A stretch of DNA of 64,000 bases. Origin: Bacteroidota bacterium (GTDB lineage: Bacteria; Bacteroidota; Bacteroidia; M30B66). A model generated the notes under the pieces. That model was given only the letters and a program-made list of their open reading frames with translations, did not search any database and had not been told where the DNA came from. This document shows positions 47,853 to 64,000 of this stretch, in pieces (within the stretch, counting starts at the first letter, position 1; every line of letters starts with the position of its first letter). The position numbers and the translations under genes are program-made. The stretch lies in the NCBI GenBank assembly GCA_027490225.1, contig JAIXYK010000057.1:13015-77014 (forward strand), in the 5' to 3' direction.

Positions 47853-48036
47853 TTGAATAATGAATAATGGATAATGAATAATGAAAAAGGGTAATTAATA
47901 ATGTAAAGCAATCAATTATTAATTTTTAATTGTTAATTAAAGAGGGTGTTGCCTTTTTTGATGTAAGAAATGACGTAATAAGAAAGTAACAATTTAAGCT
48001 GTTTGGGCTATAAGTGTGTGTTCTTAAAACCCATGA

Positions 48037-49554
48037 ATGAATAAAACTCTACTCTTCACATTTTCAATTATTTTTCTGTTTGTAAATAAAATTTCGGCTT
48101 GGAATATGCCTGAAGTAGTTGCTCCGCTTAACGCTGCCAACACTTTTACAGGAGTTACCATCAACTGGAATGCAGTAAATAATTCACAAGGCTATCAGTT
48201 AGAAATTGACACCCTTGCTACATTCTCAACACCTGCAAAGTTGAGGTTTACCAAAGACTACATCAGTACAAGCAGTGCAAACGAAGACACTGAACACAGC
48301 CTGAACAATTTGTTTTTTGGTCAAAAATATTACTGGAAAGTAAGGGCCTACATTAATGGCGATACTTCTGCCTGGAGTGCTACTTCTTTGTTTTCTACGT
48401 TTGCTATTGTAACTTTTGTAAGTCCCGAAAACGGAGTTCTAAATTTAGGAACCAATGGTATTACGCTAAATTGGGCAGCCTACGAGGGAGTTTCACAGTA
48501 TCAATTGCAAGTAGATACTACCAATCTTTTTAACTCGCCCATTTTAATCAATATTACAAAAACGTATTTGGGTGCTTCTTCAGATTCTGCTGATACAGAA
48601 CATACTATTTTTGCAGATATTGAAAACAGAACTTATTTCTGGCGCGTAAGAGCGCTTTCTGTAAATGATGCATCAGAATGGAATTCACGTTGGTTTTCTA
48701 CCGGTACCAATTCCTTTGCAATACCTGAAACACCTGCTTTGATTTTACCTTTTAATGATGAAACGGAAGTACCTACAATTATGCAATTTGTTTGGAACAG
48801 CAGTTTGTATGCAAATTCCTACCAGTTGTATGTTGATGAAAACAGCGATTTTACTTCACCATTGGTGTATACCACTACCGATACTTCCCGCATTGTGGTG
48901 ATTTTACAACCTAATCAGAAATATTACTGGTGCGTAAGGGCTTTTAACACACCTTCAATTGTTTCTTCTTGGTCTCAAATAAAGTCGTTTACGACAGTTA
49001 CAGTATTCGAAGGGCCTAATTTACTTGCACCTACGTTCAATGAAAACAACGTTTCTTTGAATGCAGATTTTGATTGGGAAGACATTGAAGACGCTACTTC
49101 TTACATTTTTTCTATAGACACCAGCAGCGATTTTAGTACACAGGTGTTAGATACAACAGAGTTTTCTGAGTATTCCACTGCATTGAATAAAGGCAGCAAG
49201 CGTTATTACTGGAGAGTAATGGCACAAAGAGATACACAGAATTCTATATGGAGCGATGTGTACGAATTTAAAACAGAATCGGCAGCAAGTACCTTTTCGG
49301 CATTCAATAAGCCAATGGTAAGCATTTTTCCAAATCCTTCGAGCGGAACTTTGTTTGTGTCGAGCGAGCAGTTGATTCAGAACATTATGGTTTTTGATAA
49401 TGCTGGGAAATTGATGGTAGATTACAACAATAGCAATGCGCAAAAACAATTGCACCTCGATTTACACACTTGGGCAACTGGCACTTATTTTTTAATTGTA
49501 AAGATGAATGACGGAACGGAAGCGAAACATAATTTCTTTGTGAAAGGGAATTGA
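48037..49554 (+). CDS. T9SS type-A cargo protein with four fibronectin-III-like repeats
   Basis: Signal peptide. Four repeats ending in the (Y)YW(R/K)VRA motif. CTD SIFPNPSSGTLFVS...GTYFLIVKMNDG. Confidence 0.65.
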   Translation: MNKTLLFTFSIIFLFVNKISAWNMPEVVAPLNAANTFTGVTINWNAVNNSQGYQLEIDTLATFSTPAKLRFTKDYISTSSANEDTEHSLNNLFFGQKYYWKVRAYINGDTSAWSATSLFSTFAIVTFVSPENGVLNLGTNGITLNWAAYEGVSQYQLQVDTTNLFNSPILINITKTYLGASSDSADTEHTIFADIENRTYFWRVRALSVNDASEWNSRWFSTGTNSFAIPETPALILPFNDETEVPTIMQFVWNSSLYANSYQLYVDENSDFTSPLVYTTTDTSRIVVILQPNQKYYWCVRAFNTPSIVSSWSQIKSFTTVTVFEGPNLLAPTFNENNVSLNADFDWEDIEDATSYIFSIDTSSDFSTQVLDTTEFSEYSTALNKGSKRYYWRVMAQRDTQNSIWSDVYEFKTESAASTFSAFNKPMVSIFPNPSSGTLFVSSEQLIQNIMVFDNAGKLMVDYNNSNAQKQLHLDLHTWATGTYFLIVKMNDGTEAKHNFFVKGN

Positions 49555-49614
49555 TAATTTGAAAGTCAGCGAAAACGCGTTGACGTGAGGAACGAAGTGG
49601 CAGCCGCCCAAAAA

Positions 49615-52023
49615 TTACCATTTCATCTTATATACTGCATCACCAATTCCGTAAATGGTTTTGCTATTTGGTAAAATTCTGAATTTGTTGGTGTACATGC
49701 CGAAATCTGCTTTTTGCCAGGTGAGGCCGCCGTTGGTAGTTTGAAAACCGCCTGCTGTGCTGCCTACAAAACCTATATTGGCATCGATGAAGCCAACGCC
49801 AAATTCCCGCACTTTATGGTTGTTGGTAAGTGGTATTTCGCTCCAGGTTTCGCCGGCATCATGGGTTTTTAAAACGTAGCGTTGGCTCACGGTGCTGTCG
49901 GGATTGTAGTTTTGAAGGGTAACGTAGCCGATTTTATGGGTAGGAAAACTGCATTTCCAGGTGAGCTCGAATGGGCGTGTACTCTGGTAAACTTTTTTCC
50001 AGGATTTTCCTGCGTCGGTGGTTTTGAGGATTACTGCATTGCATTTTTCCACATCTGCATCTGAGGCTGCGCAGATAAAACCTGTATCGGCCGACACAAA
50101 ATGAATGTCGAAAATGGCGGCGCAGTATTTTTCCATGTTCTCAGATTTCCAGGATTTACCGTTGTTGTAGCTGGTCATTAAAAACGCAGGACTACCAACC
50201 CTTCCGGCAGCTCTTATTGTATTTTCGGTTGCCGGATTTCCTGCATTGATCTTTATGTTTTTGTAAATATCTATGGCACATAATCCTTTTGGGTATGGTC
50301 CGAAAATGTTGGTAACGGCTTTCCAGGTTTTACCTGCATCAAAAGTTTCGTACAAGGCGGTAGTGTCTGTTACGTTGGGAAAATAATCGGTGCCCACATT
50401 TCCGATAAATCCATGTAAACTATCTGTAAATGCAAGGCAACGAATGAAGGTTCCCGGTTTTTCGTTTACCAATTCCCAGTTTTGTCCAGCGTTTTTGGTA
50501 TGGTATAATTTGCCTTTTCCATTGCCATACCAGCCAATATTTTCGTTGATAAAAAACACGTCATCTTGCTTGCCTTTGTAAGCTTCTGAATTGGTTTTCT
50601 GCCAAATAAATTCGGTCTTCGATTTATTCTCAATTACATTTTTTAGCCAATCAACAGAAACATATATGACTTCGGGATTGAAGTTCTCTACCATTATTTT
50701 GGAATAATTGGGATCAGCTTTGGTGCGGTAACCGTCTTCTATGCTACCAACTTTCGCAAATGCGTGGTCAGTTTGTTTTAAAAAATAGTAAGTTCCGTTT
50801 TCGGGATGGTAATGGTTGATAGTATTTACAATACTTTTGGCGCCTTCAGGATTCAGCGCTTCGATGTCTGCTTCACCATAAAATGCCAGCACTTTTGCGC
50901 TTGTTTTGCTCCATAAATCTATCGGATTAAGAGCATCTAATGTTTGGTTAAATGCAGCAGAACGCGTAAACAATAAATCGCTACCTTCTTGCCAACCAAA
51001 GTTTTCGGTCATGAATTGGCTGTAATCGGGATTTTCTTTTACGAATTGCGTAGGCGACTTTTTTTGCGTGTAAATTTCATACAAAGCTTTTCGGATTTTT
51101 CTTGCTGTATTTTCAACTTCAATGGGTTCCATGCCAAAACCATTGCTTTGAATGCGCGTCATTTCGAGGATGTATTCGCCCCAGATTTTATCGGTGGTTC
51201 CATAAACAACCGCACCTTTTACCCAAGTGTTTTTGGAAGTAAGCATTGGCGCAATGATTCCGCCCATGCTGTGTCCCCAAATGAAGATATTGTTGGTATC
51301 AATTTCGGGCATTTTTTTCAAGGTTAACAAGGCGTTTTCGAAAGCTTCGGCTTCTTCATGAATGTCTATTTGCTCGCAGGGCGGCGTATTTTCATTATCG
51401 CCGATGCCGGGTTTTTCTATGCGCAATACAGCAAATCCAGCTGCGGAGAGTCCGTCGGATAGTTGGCGGTAAGGATGTTTTTCGTCTAAATCCACATTCG
51501 GTGTGCAGGTATAACCTTGAATAAACAGAATGGCAGGAAGTTTTTGGGTAACAATTGCTGGTTTTGAAACAAGACTTCGGATGCGGCCATTTTTATAATT
51601 GAATTCACCGTACTGATAAGTTAATCCTGTTTTGTTTTCTTTAGGCCTTGCACTGGTTTTGCCTTTTAAAGTGATGAATTTATTGTTGCGCCAAACCTTG
51701 TAAACTATTGGTTCATTTTCCTTTAATGTGGCTAATTTTCCAGATTTTAAATCGGCTATTTTTTGAATGTTTATTTCGTTTACACTGCAAACAATATCGT
51801 TTTCTTTTACGCCGCAGTTGGCAGCACTTCCTGCCGGAATAACTTTTAAAACCAGTAATCCATTTGGTTCTTTATAGTTGTATTTTTTTGAAATACTATC
51901 GTTAATGGCTTGTAATGCAGCGCCATTGTAGTAATTGCGTTTTAAGCTTTGTGCATTGCTTATTGAAAAAAGAAAAATTAATATAGATAAAAGGTTTAGT
52001 TTCATTTCAGAATTTTGATGCAC
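49615..52023 (-). CDS. secreted multidomain hydrolase: PDZ + alpha/beta-hydrolase (S9/dienelactone-hydrolase-like) + C-terminal BNR/Ycf48-like beta-propeller
   Basis: Signal peptide. PDZ-like GLLVLKVIPAGSAA..GVKENDIV. Nucleophile elbow GHSMGG. C-terminal repeats DAGKTW, NAGQNW, DAGKSW, NGGLTW. Confidence 0.65.
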   Translation of the reverse strand: MHQNSEMKLNLLSILIFLFSISNAQSLKRNYYNGAALQAINDSISKKYNYKEPNGLLVLKVIPAGSAANCGVKENDIVCSVNEINIQKIADLKSGKLATLKENEPIVYKVWRNNKFITLKGKTSARPKENKTGLTYQYGEFNYKNGRIRSLVSKPAIVTQKLPAILFIQGYTCTPNVDLDEKHPYRQLSDGLSAAGFAVLRIEKPGIGDNENTPPCEQIDIHEEAEAFENALLTLKKMPEIDTNNIFIWGHSMGGIIAPMLTSKNTWVKGAVVYGTTDKIWGEYILEMTRIQSNGFGMEPIEVENTARKIRKALYEIYTQKKSPTQFVKENPDYSQFMTENFGWQEGSDLLFTRSAAFNQTLDALNPIDLWSKTSAKVLAFYGEADIEALNPEGAKSIVNTINHYHPENGTYYFLKQTDHAFAKVGSIEDGYRTKADPNYSKIMVENFNPEVIYVSVDWLKNVIENKSKTEFIWQKTNSEAYKGKQDDVFFINENIGWYGNGKGKLYHTKNAGQNWELVNEKPGTFIRCLAFTDSLHGFIGNVGTDYFPNVTDTTALYETFDAGKTWKAVTNIFGPYPKGLCAIDIYKNIKINAGNPATENTIRAAGRVGSPAFLMTSYNNGKSWKSENMEKYCAAIFDIHFVSADTGFICAASDADVEKCNAVILKTTDAGKSWKKVYQSTRPFELTWKCSFPTHKIGYVTLQNYNPDSTVSQRYVLKTHDAGETWSEIPLTNNHKVREFGVGFIDANIGFVGSTAGGFQTTNGGLTWQKADFGMYTNKFRILPNSKTIYGIGDAVYKMKW

Positions 52024-52105
52024 AAAAGTAGGGGAGTGGGTTTGTCAAAAATTGAGAAAAGGAAATCATTACTAAATTTGTTAACTTTGTAAAAAAAAAT
52101 CAAAA

Positions 52106-52351
52106 ATGCCCGAATTAACTATCAAGTATAAAAATAAGAGGACTTTGGATGCTTTGTTAGATTTTGCAAAGTATTTCGATTTTTCAATTATACTTCCATC
52201 TAAATCTAAAGGTAAAATATCGGAGATAAATGGCGTTTCTATAATTCGTGCCGATAATTCTATTGACACTTCTGAACTCGAAACTATATTTTCCACAAAC
52301 AATTTTGATGCAAAAGAAATCCGTGAAAAGGCATGGAAAAGAAAAAAATAG
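52106..52351 (+). CDS. hypothetical small protein
   Basis: 81-aa ORF in an AT-rich gap with no homology clue; overlapping antisense ORFs make the coding assignment uncertain. Confidence 0.3.
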   Translation: MPELTIKYKNKRTLDALLDFAKYFDFSIILPSKSKGKISEINGVSIIRADNSIDTSELETIFSTNNFDAKEIREKAWKRKK

Positions 52352-52429
52352 TTTGTCGTATATAGTTTATTTAAGTTATTACAAGAATTTAAATAATGAT
52401 AAACAACTTATTATTTCTAATAAAATAAT

Positions 52430-53053
52430 ATGAAGCAAAAATTACTCTTATTTGCACTAGTATTCTTAGTTTTTCTTCACTTTTCGGCAAATGCACAAGA
52501 AAAATACTTAGGTGCTGCAATTAGCAGCAATGCACCTTCATTGCCCGTTACTGGAATTGGAAATGTATTTCAGGGAAGTTTTCACCCAGGAATTGATGTT
52601 AATTATTCGAAGAAATTCAATAAAAAAGAAGTGAATCAATGGTTGTATAAAGTAAATGCAGGATTAATCTGGCAGAAATATGTGCAGACGCTTTTTACAG
52701 TTTCTGGAATGGCAGTTTATAGAAATAATCATTTTAAAAGATTAAACTTCGATTCAGGAATTGGCGCTGGTTACGGAGCATCTTTTGAAGGAGGTGCTGT
52801 TTTAAAGTTAAATGAAGATGGTGTATATGAAACCAGAAATAAATTTTCACCACGTTCTCAATTTGTAATTTTAGTGCAAGCCGGAATTATATATAATTTA
52901 AGAAAAGATGTAGCACAAAGTATGGCAATAACGCTGCATGCAAAAACCATAATTCAAGGTCCTTTTGTAAAAGGTTATGTGCCGCTTTTGCCAATAAATG
53001 CAATAGAATTGGGTGTTTTAATTCCTTTAAAAAAGAAAAATGAAAATAAATAA
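52430..53053 (+). CDS. hypothetical secreted protein
   Basis: Signal peptide (LVFLHFSANAQ); 207 aa, beta-rich. Confidence 0.45.
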   Translation: MKQKLLLFALVFLVFLHFSANAQEKYLGAAISSNAPSLPVTGIGNVFQGSFHPGIDVNYSKKFNKKEVNQWLYKVNAGLIWQKYVQTLFTVSGMAVYRNNHFKRLNFDSGIGAGYGASFEGGAVLKLNEDGVYETRNKFSPRSQFVILVQAGIIYNLRKDVAQSMAITLHAKTIIQGPFVKGYVPLLPINAIELGVLIPLKKKNENK

Positions 53054-54215
53054 ATCAATATTTTATTCGGTAATTATTTTGCTTTTATTTTCATTAAATA
53101 ATTGCAAAAAAGAAATTGGCCCAACTGAAGATATTGCTTGTTCTGGGCTGATAATTAATGAAAATCATCCAAAGAAAAATGCAATCAATGCAATTATTAC
53201 AGATTATGTAAAAAAGGGACTTCCCGGAATATCCGTATTAATTGAAGATAGCAATGGTATTTATGCCAATGCAGGTGGATTTGCTGATATTGAGAATAAT
53301 ATACCTTTTAAAACTTGTCATATTTCCAAAGCGGCAAGTATAACTAAAATGTTGGTGGGTACGCTTACTTTAAAGTTGCAAGAAGAAGGAAAGATAAATC
53401 TGGATGAGCCTATTAGTAAATATATCGATGCTGAAATTCTTAAAAAGATAGACAATGCAGAAGGAAAAACCATTCGACAATTGATGAACCATACAACAGG
53501 TATTTTCGATGTAATTACTTCTTCTAAATTTTACCTGGCAGTATTGAATACACCCAATAAAAAATGGACGCAGGAAGAGTTGTTGGAATATGTTTATGGG
53601 GAAGATGGATATGAATTAAATGCTCCCTATCCAGCACATTACAGCAATACCAATACTTTGTTATTGTCTATGTGCATAGAAAAGGCCACTGGTATTGCAC
53701 ATCATGTTTTATTAAAAGAAAAAATATTGTTGCCATTAAGTTTGGAAAATACATATTACCAAGGAAGAGAAGATTTACCGGGATTTACAGCACAAGGTTA
53801 TTTTGATTTGCATAACAACAATTCAATTGTAAACGTGAGCAATTTAATTACAGGTAGCGGAAATGGTTATGGTGGAATATTTTCGAATGTATTTGATTTA
53901 CATAAATTCGCAAAAGCGCTATTGGTAAATAAAACCATTTTAAGTGATTCATCTTTAAATGAAATGCAGCAATTTCTTCAAGAAGATACCGATTTTTATA
54001 CCGGTCCTGGATTGATTAAAAAATTCACCGATAAAGCCGCATTTGGAATTGGCCACACGGGCAGAGATTTAGGCTATAGTGCTGATTTATTTTACTTTCC
54101 AGCACAAAATAAGACCTTGGTGTTTTTTGTGAATTATGGTACCAATGGTTCAAGCGCTTTGAAAGATGTATTTAAACAATTTGAAAGTGATGTTGCGGAT
54201 GCTTTGTTGGAGTAG
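53040..54215 (+). CDS. serine hydrolase, class-C beta-lactamase/penicillin-binding-protein family lipoprotein
   Basis: Lipobox LNNC. SxxK motif (SITK) within HISKAASITKMLVG. YSN-like HYSNTNT motif. ~390 aa. Confidence 0.7.
   Translation: MKINKSIFYSVIILLLFSLNNCKKEIGPTEDIACSGLIINENHPKKNAINAIITDYVKKGLPGISVLIEDSNGIYANAGGFADIENNIPFKTCHISKAASITKMLVGTLTLKLQEEGKINLDEPISKYIDAEILKKIDNAEGKTIRQLMNHTTGIFDVITSSKFYLAVLNTPNKKWTQEELLEYVYGEDGYELNAPYPAHYSNTNTLLLSMCIEKATGIAHHVLLKEKILLPLSLENTYYQGREDLPGFTAQGYFDLHNNNSIVNVSNLITGSGNGYGGIFSNVFDLHKFAKALLVNKTILSDSSLNEMQQFLQEDTDFYTGPGLIKKFTDKAAFGIGHTGRDLGYSADLFYFPAQNKTLVFFVNYGTNGSSALKDVFKQFESDVADALLE
54177..54215 (+). repeat. direct repeat copy 1: the 3' end of the beta-lactamase-family gene
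   Basis: caatttgaaagtgatgttgcggatgctttgttggagtag aligns at ~85% identity with 54806..54843. Confidence 0.7.
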
Positions 54216-54274
54216 AGAAATTAGAAATTAACTTCAGTTAAATTGTAAATTGCCTTAAATTAAATCACTTAATA

Positions 54275-54802
54275 ATGAAAAAATCGGTATTAGTCATTAT
54301 CGCATTAACCGCTTCATTTTGTTTGGGCTTTGCATTTAATAATGTACTATTAAAACAAAAAAATGAAGAAGAGAAGTTAAAAAAAGTAACAGGCATTGGT
54401 GGTATATTTTTTAAGTGTAAAGACCCTAAAGCTGTGCGCGACTGGTATCAAACACATTTGGGATTAAACACCAATCAATACGGTTCTGTATTTGAGTGGT
54501 ATCAAGGAGCTGATTCTACGAAAAAAGGATTTTCTCAATGGAGTCCTTTTAAGGAAACAACTAAATATTTTGCCCCATCTACCAAAGAATTCATGATTAA
54601 TTACCGTGTGGCTAATTTAGAAGCACTATTAATCGAATTGAAGAAAGAAGGCGTAACTATTACGGATACTATGCAAAGCTTTGATTACGGAAAGTTCGTC
54701 CACATTATGGATATAGAAGGCAATAAAATTGAATTGTGGGAACCAAATGATGTGGTGTATGAAAAAATGGGAAAAGATATGGGGGCTGGAACTACAAAAT
54801 AG
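54275..54802 (+). CDS. VOC (glyoxalase/bleomycin-resistance-like) family protein
   Basis: 175 aa. GIGGIFFKCKDPKAVRDWY and HIMDIEGNKIELWE resemble the VOC beta-alpha-beta-beta-beta module. Confidence 0.5.
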   Translation: MKKSVLVIIALTASFCLGFAFNNVLLKQKNEEEKLKKVTGIGGIFFKCKDPKAVRDWYQTHLGLNTNQYGSVFEWYQGADSTKKGFSQWSPFKETTKYFAPSTKEFMINYRVANLEALLIELKKEGVTITDTMQSFDYGKFVHIMDIEGNKIELWEPNDVVYEKMGKDMGAGTTK

Positions 54803-54805
54803 TTG

Positions 54806-54843
54806 CAATTTGAAAGTGAATTGGAGGATGCTTTGTTAGACTG
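54806..54843 (+). repeat. direct repeat copy 2: degenerate duplicate of the upstream gene's 3' end
   Basis: caatttgaaagtgaattggaggatgctttgttagactg would encode QFESELEDALLD against the original QFESDVADALLE. Lies between the VOC stop and the mazF stop. Confidence 0.7.
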
Positions 54844-54848
54844 TTTTT

Positions 54849-55172
54849 TTAATCTACAAAAGTCTCTTTCAATACAGCTTTAACTTTTATTATTTCTTTT
54901 TCAGATAATGTGCCTAGAATTTTTACAATTCTTTGTTTGTCGATGGTTCTGATTTGATCTAATACAATCCAGCCGGTTTTTTTATCGAAATTTATGGAAA
55001 CGCGTGTTGGGTAATTTTTAGAACTACTTGTCATTGGTGCAACAACAATAGTATCTAAATGCTTATTCATTTCATTTGGCGATATAATAACGCATGGTCG
55101 CGTCTTTTTCATTTCGCTCCCAATTGTTGGGTCAAGATTTACTAAAACTATTTGATATTGTTTCATTACCAT
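54849..55172 (-). CDS. mazF: type II toxin MazF/PemK family endoribonuclease
   Basis: 107 aa; IVLVNLDPTIGSEMKKTRPCVIIS...VVAPMTS pattern of PemK/MazF. Confidence 0.75.
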   Translation of the reverse strand: MVMKQYQIVLVNLDPTIGSEMKKTRPCVIISPNEMNKHLDTIVVAPMTSSSKNYPTRVSINFDKKTGWIVLDQIRTIDKQRIVKILGTLSEKEIIKVKAVLKETFVD

Positions 55173-55408
55173 TCTTCCAAATTTTCATCTTCGAAAAAAT
55201 CGTTCATTAAAAGTTTGTCGTCACCATTTTTATGCATTTGTTTGAATGATTTTTCCCAACCGGCGCGTGGCGCAGAATGCGGTTTTAGAATAATATACCC
55301 TTTCTCTAAAATGAGCTCAATTTTATCTGTAATATTGTATTTCTGAAGCAGCGTTTTTGGAAGTCTAATTCCTTTAGAATTTCCAATTGGAATAATAGAA
55401 ATATCCAT
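55166..55408 (-). CDS. mazE: type II antitoxin MazE (AbrB/SpoVT-type swapped-hairpin)
   Basis: 80 aa. IPIGNSKGIRLPKTLL matches the AbrB/MazE fold. Overlaps mazF by 7 nt. Confidence 0.65.
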   Translation of the reverse strand: MDISIIPIGNSKGIRLPKTLLQKYNITDKIELILEKGYIILKPHSAPRAGWEKSFKQMHKNGDDKLLMNDFFEDENLEEW

Positions 55409-55490
55409 ATCATTTTTTTTTTTGTGATTACAAAGTTAGTACAAATTATTTAGAAATTTACAACCTTTCGAAAGTCTATATTTTTATTGT

Positions 55491-55519
55491 CTAAATGCCC
55501 ACAATAGCGACTGATGGCA
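55491..55519 (+). repeat. direct repeat copy 1 flanking the methyltransferase gene
   Basis: ctaaatgcccacaatagcgactgatggca versus 56540..56567 ctaaatgcccgcactagcggctgaggca (25/29 identical). Confidence 0.55.
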
Positions 55520-55724
55520 TTGTATTAATTCACATTATTAATACCAAAAGTATTTTGAAACGATTAGATTCAGTAATTTATTCCTTATCTTCGGACTTGG
55601 TAAAACAGATAGAATTCGTTTCTAATGTAGCAGCTTTTATTGACAGAGAAATGTTTTTTCATTGCTTTAAAACCGAAAAAAGAATAAGAATTGAAAGTAA
55701 GAATATTTAATTAAAAAATAGATT

Positions 55725-56510
55725 TTGAAAGATAAAATAAACAGTAATTATAAAGTTGGCGAATTAATTTATGATGCAAATATTTATGATGGTTTAAATA
55801 CTTTTCTGAATGATTTGCAATTTTATAAAAAGTGGCTACCGAAAAATAAGGATGCAAGAATACTGGAACTTTGCTGCGGCACAGGCAGACTTACACTTCC
55901 AATTGCAAAGGAAGGTTATGATATAACTGGTGTAGACAATGCATCAACTATGCTGAAGCAAGCAAAATTAAAATCGGCTGAGGCAGGATTAGAGATCAAG
56001 TTTATTGAAGCAGATATTAGAAATTTGGATTTACCTGAAAAATATGATTTAATTTTTATTCCATTTAATTCTATACATCATTTATATAAAAATGAAGATT
56101 TGTTGATGGCATTTAATGCGGTAAAAAAGCATCTTAAAAATGGAGGTTTATTTTTGTTAGATTGTTACAATCCCAATATTCATTATATAGTTGGAAATGA
56201 AAATGAATTAAAACAAATAGCTGAATACAAAACCAGCGATGGAAGAAAAGTGCTGATAAAACAGGCGATGCGATATGAAAATAGCACACAGATAAATAGA
56301 ATAGAATGGCTTTATTTTATAAATGGTGAATTTAATTCAATACAAAATCTGGATATGAGAATGTATTTTCCACAAGAATTAGATAGCTATTTGAAATTTA
56401 TAGGATTTAATATTGTGAAGAAGTTTGGAAGTTTTGAGGAGGAAGCGTTTAACGATAAATCGGAGAAACAGGTATTTGTGTGTGAAATAATTAATGATAA
56501 AAAATTATAA
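55725..56510 (+). CDS. class I SAM-dependent methyltransferase
   Basis: Motif I ILELCCGTGRLT; acidic residue after the beta2 strand (GVDNAS); 261 aa. Confidence 0.7.
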   Translation: MKDKINSNYKVGELIYDANIYDGLNTFLNDLQFYKKWLPKNKDARILELCCGTGRLTLPIAKEGYDITGVDNASTMLKQAKLKSAEAGLEIKFIEADIRNLDLPEKYDLIFIPFNSIHHLYKNEDLLMAFNAVKKHLKNGGLFLLDCYNPNIHYIVGNENELKQIAEYKTSDGRKVLIKQAMRYENSTQINRIEWLYFINGEFNSIQNLDMRMYFPQELDSYLKFIGFNIVKKFGSFEEEAFNDKSEKQVFVCEIINDKKL

Positions 56511-56539
56511 ATCGATTTATTCTATTTAGCATTTACTCC

Positions 56540-56567
56540 CTAAATGCCCGCACTAGCGGCTGAGGCA
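56540..56567 (+). repeat. direct repeat copy 2 flanking the methyltransferase gene
   Basis: See 55491..55519. Confidence 0.55.
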
Positions 56568-56669
56568 AATAGCTTGCGCATGAAATAAGCAACTATGGCC
56601 GAAGACGCGACCCCGCCGACGATATGGTGTTTTTGAAAATAATGTAAATGCGGGGGAGTGCCCAAAAAA

Positions 56670-57542
56670 TTACCTCGCTATTTTGGAAGGAGAAATACCG
56701 AAATAGTTTTTAAATGCTTTGCTAAAGCTTGGTAAATCAGCGAAATTTAATTTTAAGGCAATGGTTTCTAATGCGTATTTATTTTCGAAAATTAATTCTT
56801 TGGCGCGGAGCAATCTTAAATGCATTAAATATTGATAGGGTGTTTGCTGATAGATTTGTTTGAAATAGCGTATTAAATCGAATTTTGTAAGTGCTGAATT
56901 TTCTGCAATTAAATCTAGGTTAATTTCATCTTTAAAATTTAATTCTATGAAGTTTTTTGCTTTTTCTATGCGATGAAATATCTCGCTTTTGGTACTTTTT
57001 TTAATGCGCTCTATTCTTACTAATTTCGTATTTAATTGTAATTGAATATTGCAAACTTCCTGTGCCATAAGCTGAAGTTTTTCGGCAATTATTTCAGGTG
57101 AATTAAAATGTTGAATGATTGAATTTACAGTACTTTGAACGGTTGTATTGGCCTCAATACTTTGATATACATTGAGGTCGTGCACCAAATTAATGGCGCG
57201 CATATTTTCACTTAAATCATTTGAAAAAATAAGGTTGTTAAATGCAGCATTTATTAAATCATTGCTCAATTGAATGCATAAAGACTCTACTGGCGTAGGA
57301 TTTGAGAATTTTGCATCAATTGTTAAATCGGGTGGAGTAATGATGAATTTTCCTGATTCAACTTTATATTGATTATTATTGATATAATATTTTTCGTAGC
57401 CCGAAATGGTGTATTTTAAACTAAGGGAATCGGCTTGCAAGCGACCATCATAATTCGTTAAGGCAGAATAAATAATTGAATTATCTCCTTTACCTTTAAT
57501 TTTTTCGGTAGAATGATCGTATAACTTAATTGTTTCTATCAT
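56670..57542 (-). CDS. AraC family transcriptional regulator
   Basis: C-terminal double-HTH AraC domain (LIRYFKQIYQQTPYQYLMHLRLLRAKELI...SFSKAFKNYFGISPS). Start set at the ATG that forms an ATGA overlap with the upstream gene's stop; the ORF is open from 57581. Confidence 0.7.
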   Translation of the reverse strand: MIETIKLYDHSTEKIKGKGDNSIIYSALTNYDGRLQADSLSLKYTISGYEKYYINNNQYKVESGKFIITPPDLTIDAKFSNPTPVESLCIQLSNDLINAAFNNLIFSNDLSENMRAINLVHDLNVYQSIEANTTVQSTVNSIIQHFNSPEIIAEKLQLMAQEVCNIQLQLNTKLVRIERIKKSTKSEIFHRIEKAKNFIELNFKDEINLDLIAENSALTKFDLIRYFKQIYQQTPYQYLMHLRLLRAKELIFENKYALETIALKLNFADLPSFSKAFKNYFGISPSKIAR

Positions 57543-58795
57543 TTTTTCATAGATTTTCCTGCAACAAAGCCCGATGACCAAGCGTGTTGAAAATTAAAAC
57601 CACCTGTGATTCCATCCACATCTAATACTTCGCCAGCAAAATAAAGGTTCGGAATTTTTTTGGACATACAGGTATTGCTATCTATTTCGCTCAATTTTAC
57701 GCCTCCACAAGTTACAAATTCTTCTTTAAAGGTTGTTTTGCCTTGAATTTCAAACAAATCGGCTGAAATTGCTTCCACCAGTAAATTGAGTTTTTTGGAA
57801 GAAATATCGGCCCATTTTAAGTTCGCATCAATTTGAGATTTGTTGCATAAATGTTCCCATAAACGCGCTGGAATGCCATCGAACACGCGTGAATGTACTG
57901 CTCTTTTAGCATTCGAAATTCTCTGTTTTTCGAGCCATTCCCTGATTTCATCTTGCGTTAAATCGGGCAACCAGTGCACACGAATGTTGAAGTGGTAATT
58001 CATTTCGGCCAATTTTCTGGCGCCCCAAGCAGAACACCTTAATATGGCAGGTCCGCTGAAACCCCAATGTGTAATGAGAATTGGGCCCGTTTCTTCGAGT
58101 TTGGTACCATCTATTCTTACCCGCGCATTTTCCACTGAAAGTCCCATGAGGGAAACCATGCTGTGATTTTTTACATTGAAGGTAAATAAACTTGGAACGG
58201 GCGTTTCTATTGCGAAACCCAATTTACTTAACCAGTCGAAACCTTCTTTTTTAGGATGACCGCCCGTTGTGATAAGTAATTTTTTGCACCTCAGTTTTTC
58301 CTCATTTACAGTAAGTTCGAAATACTTTTCGGTGGGTAAAATATCAGTTACGGTGGCGTGTTGCTTGATTTCAATCTTGTTATTTTCAAATTCCTGCATG
58401 AGGCAATTGATAATGCTGATAGATTGGTCGGTCTGCGGGAACATTCTGCCATCGGCTTCATTTTTCAAGGGTACACCGCGCGATTCGAACCAATTGATGG
58501 TGTCTTGCGGGCCGAATTGAAATAATAACTTAAATAAATGCTGTTTGCCTCGCGGATATTGTGCCGAGAAGTTTTTCAAATCGAATAGATGATGGGTAAC
58601 GTTGCAGCGCCCTCCGCCCGAAATTTTAACTTTTGCAAGGCAGTTTCCGGTCTTCTCTATTAATAGTATTTTCTCTAATTGTGCTTCGTTTGCAGCCGTA
58701 ATTGCTCCAAAAAAACCTGCTGCACCACCGCCAATAACTATTAAATCGTAAACAAACACGCCTATTAATTTTACCTGCAATATTAACAATTCCAA
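57539..58795 (-). CDS. HI0933-like FAD-dependent oxidoreductase (BaiN/aminoacetone-oxidase family flavoprotein)
   Basis: N-terminal dinucleotide-binding YDLIVIGGGAAGFFGAITAA. KISGGGRCNVTH motif. ~410 aa. Confidence 0.75.
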   Translation of the reverse strand: MELLILQVKLIGVFVYDLIVIGGGAAGFFGAITAANEAQLEKILLIEKTGNCLAKVKISGGGRCNVTHHLFDLKNFSAQYPRGKQHLFKLLFQFGPQDTINWFESRGVPLKNEADGRMFPQTDQSISIINCLMQEFENNKIEIKQHATVTDILPTEKYFELTVNEEKLRCKKLLITTGGHPKKEGFDWLSKLGFAIETPVPSLFTFNVKNHSMVSLMGLSVENARVRIDGTKLEETGPILITHWGFSGPAILRCSAWGARKLAEMNYHFNIRVHWLPDLTQDEIREWLEKQRISNAKRAVHSRVFDGIPARLWEHLCNKSQIDANLKWADISSKKLNLLVEAISADLFEIQGKTTFKEEFVTCGGVKLSEIDSNTCMSKKIPNLYFAGEVLDVDGITGGFNFQHAWSSGFVAGKSMKK

Positions 58796-58906
58796 TAGAA
58801 ATCAGCAGAAAACATATTTAGCCGTTTATCAAATAAAATTTCTTTTAGATTTCTCTTTTCTCAACGCGAATTTTCATTAGGTTTGCGCCTCAATTTGAAA
58901 CACACT

Positions 58907-59788
58907 ATGAGCGTACTAGTAAATAAAGATAGCAGAATAATTGTACAAGGTTTTACGGGCACTGAAGGCACATTTCATGCAAGTCAAATGATTGAATACG
59001 GAACCAATGTTGTGGGCGGTGTTACGCCGGGCAAAGGTGGTTCTCAGCATTTAGACCGTCCTGTTTTTAATACTGTGCAAGATGCTGTTACGGCTACAAA
59101 AGCAAACGTATCCATTATTTTTGTTCCGCCTGCATTCGCTGCAGATGCAATTATGGAAGCTGCAGATGCTGGTATTGCTGTTATTGTGTGTATTACAGAA
59201 GGCATTCCTGTGAAAGATATGATAGTTGCCAAAGAATATTTGAATGGTAAAAATGTGCGTTTGATTGGACCAAATTGCCCAGGAATTATTACTCCAAACG
59301 AAGCTAAAGTGGGCATTATGCCAGGCTTTGTGTTTAAGAAAGGAAGAATTGGAATTGTTTCTAAATCGGGAACTTTAACATACGAAGCTGCTGACCAGGT
59401 TGTGAAAGCTGGAATGGGCGTTTCTACTGCGATTGGAATTGGTGGTGACCCAATAATTGGCACCACAACTTTAGAAGCAGTGAAGTTATTGATGGAAGAT
59501 CCAGAAACTGATGGAATTGTGATGATTGGTGAAATTGGTGGTAACCTAGAAGCTGATGCTGCAAGATGGATTAAGGTAAATGGAACTAAACCAGTAGTTG
59601 GCTTTATTGCAGGACAAACAGCGCCTCCGGGACGCCGTATGGGCCACGCAGGAGCAATTGTTGGTGGTGCGGAAGATACTGCAGCAGCGAAAATGAAAAT
59701 TATGGGCGAATGTGGTATTCACGTAGTTGCTTCTCCAGCTATTATTGGTAAAACGATGGCTGAAGTAATGAACGTTACAACTGCCTAA
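58907..59788 (+). CDS. sucD: succinate--CoA ligase [ADP-forming] subunit alpha
   Basis: [24 protein letters not shown]...; CoA-binding and phosphohistidine-loop motifs (GHAGAI). ORF is open from 58883. Confidence 0.9.
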
Positions 59789-59800
59789 AAACTTGAATGT

Positions 59801-61147
59801 ATGTCGGCTGCATTAGACGCAATTTCTCCAATAGACGGTCGATATTACAGACATACTTCTGTTTTAAGAGGATATTTCTCTGAACAAGCCTTGTTTAAAT
59901 ACAGGGTGTTGGTAGAGATTGAGTATTTTATTGTGTTGTCCACTGTTGGCATTCAACAGTTTCCGCCCTTGTCTCAAAGTCAGCAAAAGAATTTGAGGGC
60001 GATTTATGCAACATTTTCTAGCGAAGATGCCGAAAAGATTAAGGAAATTGAAAAACGCACCAACCACGATATTAAGGCAGTTGAATATTTTATAAAAGAT
60101 AAAATTTCTGAAATCGGCTTAGGTCAATACAAAGAATGGGTGCATTTCGGATTGACTTCTCAGGATATTAATAACACAGCCATTCCGCTTTCCATCAAAG
60201 ACGCAACATTAGAAGTGTTGTTGCCTGAATTGGAGCAATTTACAGATAGTTTATACCAGCTGGCCATACAATGGAAGAACATTCCCATGTTGGCCCGCAC
60301 GCATGGACAAGCCGCTTCTCCAACAGGTTTAGGAAAAGAAATTTTTGTGTTTGTAGAACGCCTGCGCATTCAGATTGCACAGTTAAAAACAACGGTTTGG
60401 GCAGCTAAATTTGGAGGTGCAACCGGAAATTTCAATGCACACAATGTGGCATTTCCTCAGGTGGAATGGAAGGCATTTGCCACACATTTCGTTGCAGAGC
60501 TAGGTTTAACAAGAAGCGAAACCACTACACAAATAGAACATTACGATCATTTGGCAGGTTGGTGCCACCAGTTGATAAGAATACATACCATTTTGGTTGA
60601 TTTTTGTCGTGATGTGTGGACGTACATTTCGATGGATTACTTTAAGCAAAAAGTAACTGCCGGTGAAATTGGTTCCAGCGCAATGCCGCATAAGGTAAAC
60701 CCGATAGATTTCGAAAATGCAGAAGGAAACCTAGGAATTGCCAATGCCTTACTGGATTATTTCGCCTTAAAATTACCCATTTCGAGGTTGCAGCGCGATC
60801 TAACCGACTCAACTGTTTTACGCAACATTGGAGTTCCCATTGCGCACAGCGTTATTGCTTTAACATCTTTGAAAAAAGGAGTAGGGAAGCTGGTAGTAAA
60901 CGAAAAAGCCATTCAAGCCGACCTGCAAAAGAATGCAGTAGTAATTGCAGAAGCCATTCAAACGGTATTGCGCAGAGAAGCTTACCCAGAACCCTACGAA
61001 GCCTTGAAACAGCTTACCCGCGGAAAAGAAACCATCGATTTAGCATCCATTCAGGAGTTCATTAATAGCTTGGATATTTCTACCGAATTGAAAATGGAAT
61101 TGTTGGCGATAACTCCGGAGAATTATACGGGGGTGACGGGTTTTTAA
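59801..61147 (+). CDS. purB: adenylosuccinate lyase
   Basis: SPIDGRY N-terminus, fumarate-lyase signature (GSSAMPHKVNP), 448 aa. Confidence 0.9.
   Translation: MSAALDAISPIDGRYYRHTSVLRGYFSEQALFKYRVLVEIEYFIVLSTVGIQQFPPLSQSQQKNLRAIYATFSSEDAEKIKEIEKRTNHDIKAVEYFIKDKISEIGLGQYKEWVHFGLTSQDINNTAIPLSIKDATLEVLLPELEQFTDSLYQLAIQWKNIPMLARTHGQAASPTGLGKEIFVFVERLRIQIAQLKTTVWAAKFGGATGNFNAHNVAFPQVEWKAFATHFVAELGLTRSETTTQIEHYDHLAGWCHQLIRIHTILVDFCRDVWTYISMDYFKQKVTAGEIGSSAMPHKVNPIDFENAEGNLGIANALLDYFALKLPISRLQRDLTDSTVLRNIGVPIAHSVIALTSLKKGVGKLVVNEKAIQADLQKNAVVIAEAIQTVLRREAYPEPYEALKQLTRGKETIDLASIQEFINSLDISTELKMELLAITPENYTGVTGF
61097..61146 (+). repeat. direct repeat copy 1: the 3' end of purB
   Basis: ggaattgttggcgataactccggagaattatacgggggtgacgggttttta aligns with 62817..62866 (~40/48 identical). 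Confidence 0.7.
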
Positions 61148-61299
61148 TTTTTTAACCTTCACATATAGTTTGCGGCTTAACAGAAGTGTGGGAATGGTGA
61201 ACGAAATCCTTTAACTTAGCGAGAAGTTACAAATAAATCGAATTCTTCAAACTTCCCCAATGCCTAAATTTTAGTTAGCCGCTTTTAGCTGCTGGTAGT

Positions 61300-61686
61300 T
61301 TATCCCCAAATCTGCTTCACTTTGTAATTCTTAAACAACTTGTCGCGAGTTATAATAATTAATTCTTCCGATATAGCTTGGGCAATAATTAATCTATCAA
61401 ACGGATCATTATGATGTGAGGGTAATTTTGATAGCTGCAAAAGATGTTCGTAGTTTATTGGAATAATTTCTATTTGATTTCTGTCTATAAAATCGAATAA
61501 TTCTTTCAAAGAAAGTCCTAAATCTAATTTATTATTTTGAAGTTTTATTGTAATTTCCCATAAACTTGCCGCACTCAAAAAGCAAGACTCATCAATATTT
61601 CCTATTATGCGCTTTGCAGATTCGGGTAGTAGCTTGTCGCCAGAAACAAACCAAAGAAAGGCATGTGTGTCGAGAAGATAAGCCAT
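61300..61686 (-). CDS. vapC: type II toxin VapC (PIN-domain ribonuclease)
   Basis: MAYLLDTHAFLW N-terminus and acidic PIN residues; 128 aa. Confidence 0.7.
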   Translation of the reverse strand: MAYLLDTHAFLWFVSGDKLLPESAKRIIGNIDESCFLSAASLWEITIKLQNNKLDLGLSLKELFDFIDRNQIEIIPINYEHLLQLSKLPSHHNDPFDRLIIAQAISEELIIITRDKLFKNYKVKQIWG

Positions 61687-61889
61687 TAAATATAATCTTT
61701 GAACTCATCTAATGGTTCATCGAAATCTGGAGAAAGGATGATCTTACCCTTTGCAAACCCAAACTCACGAGCTTTTAGCTTTGGTTTTGACTTTGATTTA
61801 TTTTTCAAAAACTCAACAAAATTAGCTACTTCTGCCCGCAATTCTTTTGGTAAAGAGTTGATTTCAAGCTTTAATGTCGTATTTGTCAT
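61686..61889 (-). CDS. type II antitoxin (DUF2281/VapB-like)
   Basis: 67 aa. 1-nt overlap with vapC. C-terminal ...GKIILSPDFDEPLDEFKDYI is typical of DUF2281 antitoxins. Confidence 0.5.
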   Translation of the reverse strand: MTNTTLKLEINSLPKELRAEVANFVEFLKNKSKSKPKLKAREFGFAKGKIILSPDFDEPLDEFKDYI

Positions 61890-61982
61890 TCAACAAATTT
61901 AAAATAATATGATGATTTATCAAACTTTAATTTAGATGTTGATTGTGAAGCCCGTATGCAGCTTGCTAAGCGGAGGGCGTTA

Positions 61983-62288
61983 TTATCCAAACAACAAATT
62001 CACTCTTTTTCCAAGTCCAAATTCAAAAATTCTGTAAAGTGTGGATAGTTGAATGTCACATTTTCCGTTTTCAAGTCTAGAAATATAACTTTTTTTAGCT
62101 CCAACTTTTTCGGCAAGTTGTTCTTGTGTCATATTTGCCTCTTTACGAGCTTCTTTAAGAATCTCGCTGATAACAAAATATTGAGCCTTCTCTTCAAAAC
62201 TATCTCGTTTTTCAGCGCCAATTTTTCCGTATTTTATGTCTAACAACTCATCAAAGTTCTTAGCATTTCTGATTTTATCTTTGTCCAT
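61983..62288 (-). CDS. XRE-family helix-turn-helix transcriptional regulator (HigA-like antitoxin candidate)
   Basis: HTH MTQEQLAEKVGAKKSYISRLENGK; 101 aa. Confidence 0.7.
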   Translation of the reverse strand: MDKDKIRNAKNFDELLDIKYGKIGAEKRDSFEEKAQYFVISEILKEARKEANMTQEQLAEKVGAKKSYISRLENGKCDIQLSTLYRIFEFGLGKRVNLLFG

Positions 62289-62385
62289 TACTTTTTTAAT
62301 TCATTCATAAGTTTCGATGCCAAATCGATTTCCTTTTTTGCACGGTATTGGGTGGTGGGCACTATCAAATTTTTTAGTCCCAAAG

Positions 62386-62559
62386 CTAAGAATGAAGAAC
62401 TTTTGCTTTCTTTTTTATTGTCTCAGGTTTTTGCTTTTTATTTTTTGATTCGCTCTTATAATTACGAATAAAATCACTAATTTCTTTACGAGCATTGTCA
62501 GTCAACGGATCGCTTGATATTATAAAGTCAATTCCTTTCGGTTCTTTTATATGTCCCAT
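62386..62559 (-). CDS. hypothetical small basic protein (57 aa) upstream of the XRE gene
   Basis: Hand-translated minus-strand ORF MGHIKEPKGIDFIISSDPLTDNARKEISDFIRNYKSESKNKKQKPETIKKKAKVLHS. It is below the ORF-track length cut-off. Confidence 0.25.
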   Translation of the reverse strand: MGHIKEPKGIDFIISSDPLTDNARKEISDFIRNYKSESKNKKQKPETIKKKAKVLHS

Positions 62560-62816
62560 AATTTTTTTAAGATTTAAAATACTTGAAACCGCGGTATCAA
62601 AACTGCCGCCCGAAATTGTATTCAGAATTTAATTTGTTAAATTGTCTACAATGAAGTCGAGATTTATTTTTTTCCTTTTTTTCACATCGTAAGTTTACGA
62701 AAAATCTCTTTTCAATCTACCGTAATTTTTATTTATGTTGGTTGTTTTTGTGCCTTACGCCCAACTTAATATCAGAGATAATTTTCAAAAATCATATATA
62801 AAACCAGCAATAGGGA

Positions 62817-62866
62817 AGTTGTTGGCGATAACGCCAGAGAATTATATGGGGGAGACTTCGTTTTAA
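62817..62866 (+). repeat. direct repeat copy 2: degenerate duplicate of the purB 3' end
   Basis: ggaagttgttggcgataacgccagagaattatatgggggagacttcgttttaa would encode ...KLLAITPENYMGETSF* against purB ...ELLAITPENYTGVTGF*. Confidence 0.7.
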
Positions 62867-63023
62867 ATAGATTCCCTTTTTGCAATTGATTTTTATATTT
62901 ATTTGTAACGTTTTTTATGTAAAATGGCTATCTAAATTAATAAAGAAATAACCAGTAAAAAATTACGGTAATACTAATTTTTACAGTTAATTTTTGTAAT
63001 TTTTCGGTGCTAATTCAAGATGT

Positions 63024-63593
63024 ATGAAAAGAAGTTTGACAGTGCATTTTATTTTGATATGTGTATGTAGTTGCAGTTTGTTTGCACAGACGAGTATAGA
63101 CACAACTGGAATAAGGAACACGTTGGAAGAAATTCTAAACCGCGACCAAAAAACACGCACAGGAAAGGACTCTGCTGCTTTTATGCGTTATATAGACAGC
63201 ACAAACTTGGTGCAAGTTGAATTATTAATTGCAAAATACGGTTGGATGGGAAGGAGCTTTGTGGGAGATAGAGGCAACAGTGCATTGTTTTTTGTAATTC
63301 AGCATGCAGACTTAGCAACACAATTAAAATATGTTTCACTTTTAGAAAAGTCAGTTGAAGTGGGAGAATCCCGACCAAGCAATTTGGCGCTTTTGCAAGA
63401 CAGAATTTTAATGCGACAAGGCAAAAAGCAAATCTATGGTTCACAAGTAGTTTACAGCGAAACAGGAGAGCAAATATTTTATCAGATAGAAGATGAAAAG
63501 AATGTAAACATAAGAAGAGCCAAAATGGGAATGCAACCTTTAGAAGATTATGCTAAACTTTTTGGCATCGAATACAAGCTTCCTGAACAGTAA
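63024..63593 (+). CDS. hypothetical secreted protein
   Basis: Signal peptide (ILICVCSCSLFAQ), 189 aa, no recognised motif. Confidence 0.45.
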   Translation: MKRSLTVHFILICVCSCSLFAQTSIDTTGIRNTLEEILNRDQKTRTGKDSAAFMRYIDSTNLVQVELLIAKYGWMGRSFVGDRGNSALFFVIQHADLATQLKYVSLLEKSVEVGESRPSNLALLQDRILMRQGKKQIYGSQVVYSETGEQIFYQIEDEKNVNIRRAKMGMQPLEDYAKLFGIEYKLPEQ

Positions 63594-64000
63594 TTCACAA
63601 CGAAATGACTATAAAAGAAGTTAACATTTAATTGCGCTGAATTCGTTGAAATCATTGATAAGTTCAGTGAACTATGATTGTTTAATAGAGGAATTTTTTA
63701 GGTGAATTTTGATCAGTTCTAATAACCATAATATTGCAATCAATTTTTTCTTGCACAACTTCATTTAGTTCAAAATAGAACTCTGAGAAATGGTGCGCGT
63801 AAAAAATGATTTGTCTTTAAAAATCCACGCGACAAAGTTATCTCTAAAGTTATCAGTCATTAATTTTTTGTTTTGTTATTAATTTATGTTGAGTAAATTG
63901 TTAATAATAAAAAAGGTAATTATTAATGAATAAAGTAAGATGCCATAAGTTTGTCAATAATTGACAAGTCATATGAAAGAAACTTTTGGACATTATATTA

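Follow-up and report, generated by a model that had tools for sequence, protein, structure and literature searches.

A diverged second purB tail as a probable illegitimate-join scar in a mosaic toxin-antitoxin and defence island of an uncultured Bacteroidota lineage

The DNA analysed here (the window) is a 64,000-nucleotide (nt) stretch of a Bacteroidota bacterium (GTDB lineage Bacteroidia; M30B66), positions 13,015 to 77,014 of contig JAIXYK010000057.1 in assembly GCA_027490225.1, in which the last codons of purB, the adenylosuccinate lyase gene, recur beyond a group of small toxin-antitoxin genes. This lineage has no close genome among GTDB representatives, the closest purB there sharing 64% amino acid (aa) identity, and relatives of the window were metagenome contigs falling into four sets, as follows.

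Sister lineage (L102 and L109-L121; JGI Ga02478xx, ENA ERZ272504xx): 91-93% nt identity over window 56543-62340; gene order past purB is vapC-vapB, XRE, an intact higB, then defence genes.
L123 (JGI Ga0620595_000009, a 1.05-Mb contig): 93-96% nt identity over window 44062-61146; past purB lie a 56-aa gene, a 184-aa gene, a Fic-like_C gene and an SLFN helicase.
L100: purB 98% identical in aa; a MazF gene lies past purB after 26 shared nt.
Distant L103-L108: purB 67-70% identical in aa; no island, with a glycosyltransferase-like gene directly abutting purB, then purL.

The features of the locus, in window coordinates, are listed below.

59801..61147, + strand: purB, 448 aa (Pfam Lyase_1 5.7e-53, ASL_C 5.7e-46), left flank of the variable island.
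61100..61147, + strand: purB tail copy 1, the functional end of the gene (...LLAITPENYTGVTGF and stop).
61148..61299: purB-vapC spacer, kept in the sister lineage; L100 shares only its first ~26 nt and L123 none.
61299..61939: VapBC module (genes and promoter region), 641 nt, 91.4% nt identity to L107:4785-5425.
61300..61686, - strand: vapC, PIN-domain toxin, 128 aa (Pfam PIN 2.4e-20).
61686..61889, - strand: vapB antitoxin, 67 aa, DUF2281 (Pfam DUF2281 2.8e-17; NCBIfam TA_VapB 81.4 bits, cut-off 60).
61983..62288, - strand: higA-type XRE antitoxin, 101 aa (Pfam HTH_3 2.6e-13).
62288..62340, - strand: higB 3' remnant (...KKEIDLASKLMNELKK and stop), aligning to the C-terminus of sister HigB.
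62341..63687: lineage-specific segment, 1,347 bp, delimited by blastn and exact junction mapping against L109 and L119.
62386..62559, - strand: complete 57-aa gene, small-protein family of unknown function.
62763..62813, + strand: internal fragment of a Fic-like_C gene, 51 nt, 92% identical to L123:18743-18793.
62814..62866, + strand: purB tail copy 2 (...KLLAITPENYMGETSF and stop), joined directly to the Fic-like_C fragment.
63024..63593, + strand: DUF6624 gene, 189 aa, signal-peptide-like N-terminus (Pfam DUF6624 4.8e-21).
63688..63756, - strand: higB 5' remnant (VQEKIDCNIMVIRTDQNSPKKFL), matching the N-terminus of sister HigB.
63757..63891: higB upstream (promoter) region, conserved with the sister lineage (window 63685-63891 against L109rc 4809-5016, 82.7%).

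The 3' end of purB is directly repeated, with the proximal copy completing the gene: 61100-61147 and 62819-62866 align over 48 nt with 40/48 identical positions (83%), ungapped and in the same register, opening with a 14-nt perfect block and finishing exactly at the stop codon, which is TAA in both. Homology of copy 2 to the purB tail extends left to 62814 if one gap is allowed. An earlier first-pass annotation of the window had described this repeat as about 50 nt at about 83% identity, with a second copy that still encodes KLLAITPENYMGETSF and a stop, and both points were borne out at a level well beyond chance. The corresponding 34-nt degenerate pattern (at most 3 mismatches) has two sites only in the 64 kb and gave 0 matches in 100 shuffles, and the identical test applied to other Bacteroidota purB loci as a null returned best matches of just 19-30/48. 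Both copies are spanned by Logan assemblies L005/L094 (SRR16126836) and L096 (SRR16126855), and L091/L097 (SRR16126860) covers vapB through copy 2 to the DUF6624 gene; because the identical arrangement recurs in at least three independent assemblies built from different runs, the repeat is not a mis-assembly. The contig is metagenome-derived and the region AT-rich, circumstances that would favour chance similarity or faulty assembly, but set against the shuffles, the independent assemblies and a best match of 30/48 at any other locus, either explanation is vanishingly improbable.

The final codons of copy 1 are of the 'TGF' type, as in L123; those of the sister lineage, L100, L101 and copy 2 (which ends ...ACTTCGTTTTAA) are of the 'TSF' type. 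Against the purB ends of L100, L101 and L102, copy 2 matches at 43/48 positions, compared with 40/48 for the window's own purB; of its 3 private substitutions, 2 are non-synonymous. Because of its 'TSF' end and these private changes, copy 2 appears to derive from the purB end of a related strain, or from an older state of the gene, and to have been evolving without constraint.

The surroundings of copy 2 were placed by comparison with the sister lineage, in which higB is intact (82-91 aa, Gp49/HigB, Pfam 2.1e-20) and lies directly upstream of XRE. The XRE protein of the window was assigned as a HigA antitoxin because its sister counterpart is start/stop-coupled to that intact Gp49/HigB gene upstream. 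Homology between window and sister ends at 62340 and restarts at 63688, with 139 bp of mid-higB absent from the window, and the 1,347-bp segment occupies the interval. The window therefore has the antitoxin gene of a HigBA pair together with a split toxin gene, and since HigB is split and inactive, HigA is left as an orphan antitoxin. The sister state of higB is taken as ancestral, because the window allele, which lacks the 139 bp, cannot regenerate an intact gene; copy 2 would therefore be part of a separate, later indel that destroyed higB, and the DNA between the two purB tails would not be one inserted unit. The first-pass annotation had described that DNA as a 1.7-kb islet, inserted as a unit bounded by attachment (att) sites with copy 2 as its far boundary. 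Neither part of this description survives the comparison: in the sister lineage purB-vapCB-XRE is accompanied by an intact higB, and the 10.7 kb downstream of purB lack a second purB tail, and copy 2 of the window lies inside the segment that splits higB. The 31-aa open reading frame (ORF) at 62288-62383 is the HigB C-terminal remnant reading into foreign DNA.

At the left edge of copy 2 the Fic-like_C fragment ends at 62813 and purB homology begins at 62814, with zero spacer. The source gene of the fragment in L123 encodes 133 aa (Pfam Fic-like_C 4.1e-21, winged-helix), and the sister lineage carries a 157-aa Fic-like_C homologue just beyond higB. The 43-aa ORF at 62735-62866 is accordingly a chimera of the Fic-like_C fragment (...NFQKSYIKPAIG) and the purB tail (KLLAITPENYMGETSF and stop). 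This pair sits intergenic between the 57-aa gene, from which the Fic-like_C fragment is separated by an AT-rich stretch, and the DUF6624 gene. Microhomology between the parental sequences at the junction does not exceed a few nt, in the form of a short ATGG/GAAAATGG-like stretch. Read from these joined sequences, the left border of copy 2 appears to be an illegitimate junction and not an att arm. Two local features of L123 were recorded in the same comparison: a G8 run after the purB stop (L123:17604-17612), and a 12-nt tandem repeat ATACCATACATG in the Fic-like_C gene giving HDTIHDTIHDTI (L123:18605-18650).

The same junction could have been left by an old tandem duplication running from about purB codon 432 to the middle of Fic-like_C, most of the duplicate having later been deleted or replaced. 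In both L123 and the sister lineage, Fic-like_C has the same orientation as purB and is found 1-1.7 kb downstream of it, and duplication of that interval would yield exactly a Fic-like_C middle followed by a purB tail. However, what follows copy 2 (DUF6624) bears no relation to what follows copy 1. The Fic-like_C fragment extends for just 51 nt and has a further non-homologous junction bordering it on the left, copy 2 is 'TSF' while the window's purB is 'TGF', and at least two further replacements, both ending inside higB, would be required. Such a duplication is accordingly considered an unlikely origin for copy 2.

The purB stop codon is the left edge of a hypervariable toxin-antitoxin/defence island. 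Close relatives hold at least four different contents after it, and homology of L123 to the window ceases exactly at this codon. Of the claim of the first-pass annotation that DNA had been inserted by an integrase at the purB 3' end, this much stands: strain-variable toxin-antitoxin DNA does begin at the purB stop. Its att-bounded islet does not stand. Genes further into the island vary from strain to strain and mostly serve defence: they are of the HTH-methylase/HNH/ScoMcrA-like kind in the window and of the methylase/HATPase/Z1/DUF4420/AIPR kind in the sister lineage, and an SLFN helicase lies downstream in L123 and L116. Contig L088 (L088:1707-7327) extends the window past position 64000 with a 505-aa HTH-fused DNA methylase, HNH_2, two unannotated genes and a ScoMcrA-like/HNH gene; these are restriction-type defence genes, unlike those of the sister lineage. 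Upstream of the island, mismatches between the window and L123 swing between 0-5 and 10-14 per 200 nt, and in the final 200 nt of purB each of the three lineages differs from the others by ~7%. Mosaic divergence of this kind is the pattern expected if island variants are swapped by homologous recombination in the flank.

The modules of the island (VapBC, XRE and DUF6624) move independently. The calls of the first-pass annotation for a VapC toxin, a DUF2281-like antitoxin overlapping it by 1 nt, an XRE regulator and a 57-aa ORF are all supported by Pfam, NCBIfam or phmmer searches. The vapB/vapC overlap is 1 nt at 61686, and the PIN toxin gene is immediately downstream of, and coupled to, the small antitoxin gene, as in VapBC modules generally. 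The L107 copy of this module is at a different locus, between 2-Hacid_dh and HI0933-like genes and 3 kb upstream of a purB that shares 70.7% nt and 67% aa identity with that of the window, and it has no flanking repeats and no gene-tail repeat. The ~255 nt ahead of it look like what is left of a further small gene. An attempt to map the VapBC insertion finely by comparing L107 with L103 was given up, the intergenic DNA being too diverged to align. The cluster of the XRE protein at 90% identity or above holds proteins named from Paludibacter and Daejeonella. Near the start of the XRE gene, Logan contigs of two samples (ends of L001 and L007; starts of L088 and L090) break at ~62267-62296 with an overlap of ~30 nt, and this shared break may reflect a variant coexisting in those populations.

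Within the 1,347-bp segment, the 57-aa ORF gave 189 phmmer matches at E<=1e-3 against 1.84 billion representatives, mostly of 50-60 aa and end-to-end, and no Pfam or NCBIfam family. That it might be a piece of a 477-aa protein was considered and dismissed: the other member of its cluster, P0151, is a TAF4 protein of low complexity from a eukaryote, so the clustering is spurious. The DUF6624 gene starts 157 nt past copy 2. Upstream of its closest homologue with sequence context (83% aa identity, on the metagenome contig L122) there is no purB tail, and the N-terminal extensions seen in homologues are artefacts of read-through, so the idea that DUF6624 natively follows purB was dropped. The L122 homologue lies between direct repeats of ~135 nt (L122:315-448 and 1253-1437) with internal inverted repeats, which look like a repeat-bounded cassette array or a pair of miniature inverted-repeat transposable elements.

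Just two gene tails are duplicated in the 64 kb, that of purB and that of a beta-lactamase-family gene (53040-54215). In the beta-lactamase-family gene the final ~12 codons (54177-54215) recur at 54806-54844 with 30/35 nt identical; the copy starts 3 nt past the stop of a 175-aa lactoylglutathione-lyase-like ('VOC') ORF (54275-54802) and fills the gap up to a convergent mazF, so that the insert corresponds to 54216-54805. L123 has the identical beta-lactamase/VOC arrangement, and no empty-site relative lacking the 175-aa ORF occurs among the relatives seen. The first-pass annotation had ascribed this VOC cassette to the mechanism it proposed for purB. A second gene-tail duplication does exist, as that proposal implies, but the sequences flanking its repeat have no motif in common with those flanking the purB repeat.

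These observations bear on a site-specific alternative, by which copy 2 would be a relic attR or internal attP of an integrase-mobilised element at the purB 3' end, carrying a replacement tail, with its recombinase lost or acting in trans from the unseen distal island and rearrangements having moved the relic into higB. A gene tail that is duplicated and diverged in this way is documented for e14 and phage 21 at icd, where the prophage supplies a diverged replacement 3' end and a pseudo-icd' tail remains at the other att site (PMC6379469). As at icd, the frame of the housekeeping gene is intact here and a diverged copy of the last codons with a stop lies downstream of foreign DNA. The sharp border at the purB stop, with its at least four cargos in close relatives and 26 nt past the stop shared by L100, would also suit such an element, as would a repeat that spans a 14-nt perfect block to the exact stop codon and the similar tail duplication flanking the VOC ORF. 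Unlike e14/icd, however, no integrase was found in the islet or the scanned ORFs of the window, the DNA between the copies is not a single element, the distal copy is inside a separate higB insertion and fused to a fragment of another gene, and the sister lineage keeps the same proximal genes, the VapBC-HigBA block beside purB, without the distal copy. On its inner side, moreover, copy 2 borders directly on an internal piece of a gene resident in the island, with not one nt of arm sequence in between. Absence of a common motif at the purB and beta-lactamase repeats likewise tells against a shared attachment system.

Searches for recombinases, attachment sites and mobile elements gave the following. 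Neither recombinase nor transposase domains turned up in the islet or among 38 ORFs scanned across the 64 kb, and the precomputed Pfam annotations of genes called in 10 kb of the sister island list no recombinase; the first-pass annotation was right that the islet lacks an integrase, and a cognate recombinase, for which it proposed searching the genome, did not appear in any of these. Integrase-less derivatives of the cis-mobilizable (CIME) type do not require a recombinase gene of their own. In the islet neither a tRNA, another structured RNA, an Rfam family nor a terminator was found, and the purB-vapC spacer shows neither a significant fold nor a terminator-like site. As a phage or plasmid attP the repeat found no counterpart, its pattern being absent from viral contigs, and the single match of the pattern in metagenomes is the purB end of the sister lineage. 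Relatives of the islet are likewise lacking from the phage collection, and the plasmid collection gave only a 92-nt VapBC similarity (a cyanobacterial plasmid). Nor is purB a general att hotspot: among the other Bacteroidota purB loci compared, none has a short duplicated tail, and only L079 has a longer, decayed remnant. L079, a Chitinophagaceae metagenome-assembled genome, carries an arrangement (recorded at L079:7335-8299) of a full purB followed by an opposite-strand 195-aa lipoprotein-like gene and then a decayed purB pseudogene of ~270 nt with an internal deletion, ending ...KEITPFNYIGMNNAF and stop, before prfC; it is an independent precedent with a breakpoint different from that of the window's purB tail. 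Taken with the anatomy of the junction, these results make an att relic a doubtful explanation of copy 2.

Other mobile systems were considered and rejected. Variability in L100 that starts ~26 nt past the stop prompted the consideration of a homing spacer of Tn7 or a CRISPR-associated transposon (CAST), but L123 diverges right at the stop; no transposase, tnsABC/tniQ or cas genes were found in the window or relatives, and there were no CRISPR repeats and no repeats flanking copy 2. Integron cassettes and clusters of attC sites lacking integrases (CALINs) were set aside with no attC-like imperfect palindromes at module borders and no IntI-like ORF in the window. Candidate terminal inverted repeats of the islet (61250-61263 and 62807-62820, 12/14) were no better than many chance pairs nearby. 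Nothing found ties the local turnover of modules to a dedicated cassette recombinase. A bolder version of the site-specific idea would take both the purB- and beta-lactamase-tail duplications as footprints of undescribed integrase-less mini-cassettes of 0.6-1.3 kb, each holding one or two genes and inserted at gene 3' ends, with a replacement tail as attachment site and a recombinase acting in trans; the 57-aa/purB-tail/DUF6624 segment would then be one of these cassettes, captured at an off-target site in higB and still having an intact attP. This version is regarded as highly unlikely.

Copy 2 is probably an illegitimate-join scar within a mosaic toxin-antitoxin/defence island, and not the att site of an integrase-inserted islet. 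The first 1.2 kb past purB in the window holds two type II modules, vapBC and higBA. On this account a 'TSF'-type purB end of 52 nt from a related strain would have been joined illegitimately to the Fic-like_C fragment, and the resulting purB-tail scar with its neighbours would later have been carried into higB as the 1,347-bp segment, with the loss of 139 bp. This insertion would have killed the HigB toxin and left HigA as an orphan, and copy 2 itself would be a non-functional scar. Island content would turn over through homologous recombination in the purB flank together with illegitimate joins and deletions, and not through a site-specific integrase acting at a purB att site.

Several points weigh against this account. 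No donor was found for the 1,347-bp segment, and purB directly followed by the DUF6624 gene was seen in no strain examined; the empty site expected by the first-pass annotation (purB, then the gene at 63024) was accordingly found in no relative. The proposed order of events depends on three lineages only, and the distal end of the island, a possible integrase site, is beyond the sequence covered in every strain. The exact stop-codon end and the 14-nt perfect block also fit an element-borne replacement tail (attP), and the second gene-tail duplication, 7 kb away, has tight borders round a single ORF.

Homology-facilitated illegitimate recombination, reportedly set out by de Vries and Wackernagel in 2002, is said to combine a homology anchor at one end with an illegitimate join at the other. 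Like that process, the window has foreign DNA adjoining a conserved anchor gene that is itself mosaic, little or no microhomology at the junction, and a leftover piece of the recipient gene at the join; unlike a simple one-step event of that kind, the scar is displaced and now lies inside higB. The purB-tail join may be of the homology-facilitated illegitimate type, with a putative donor and transfer route. The island resembles defence and toxin-antitoxin hotspots in that strain-specific VapBC, HigBA and MazEF modules lie immediately after a core gene and restriction-modification, Z1/AIPR and SLFN-helicase genes follow, the left flank only being covered here. In domains, gene order, 1-nt overlaps and small size its modules are like type II VapBC (PIN/DUF2281) and HigBA (Gp49-RelE-type/XRE) systems, although, unlike a working HigBA, the HigB of the window is split and inactive. 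They also resemble integron cassettes and CALINs as small one-gene or gene-pair modules, often toxin-antitoxin, that turn over between strains, but differ from these in that the window has no IntI gene and no attC-like palindromes at module borders.

Further repeats and motifs were recorded elsewhere in the window. For the GC-rich motif at 61947-61985, which the first-pass annotation held to be shared with another leader, the window contains no further copy. A different GC-rich motif, CTAAATGCCC...TAGCG.CTGA, occurs twice (55483-55514 and 56532-56563), flanking a 71-aa ORF and a methyltransferase. Its second copy opens a GC-rich element of ~130 nt (~56539-56670) that ends GCGGGGGAGTGCCCAAAAAA, lies downstream of an AraC gene and is conserved in L123 and the sister lineage, with no Rfam match. 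Strain breakpoints coincide with these motifs: L123 has an extra module of a 76-aa gene and PemK (115 aa; L123:11230-11998) at the first copy, with L123:11219-11295 recorded for the same feature, and sister synteny starts at 56543, within the second copy. The gene for a 1342-aa Por_Secre_tail protein (ORF 43824-47852) contains 3-4 diverged internal tandem repeats of ~816-820 nt at 44900-47260.

For genome scans the locus carries a caution: a diverged duplicate of a gene's last codons that ends at the stop mimics an attL/attR pair and may equally be a recombination scar, and here it was the comparison of strains that separated the two readings. The families involved (VapBC, a broken HigBA, DUF6624 and a small-protein family) are known, and no new mechanism is implied. 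The window nevertheless offers a clear case of an insertion that destroys a toxin gene and leaves an orphan HigA antitoxin, and it adds a new purB-flanked toxin-antitoxin/defence hotspot in an uncultured Bacteroidota lineage without a close reference genome.

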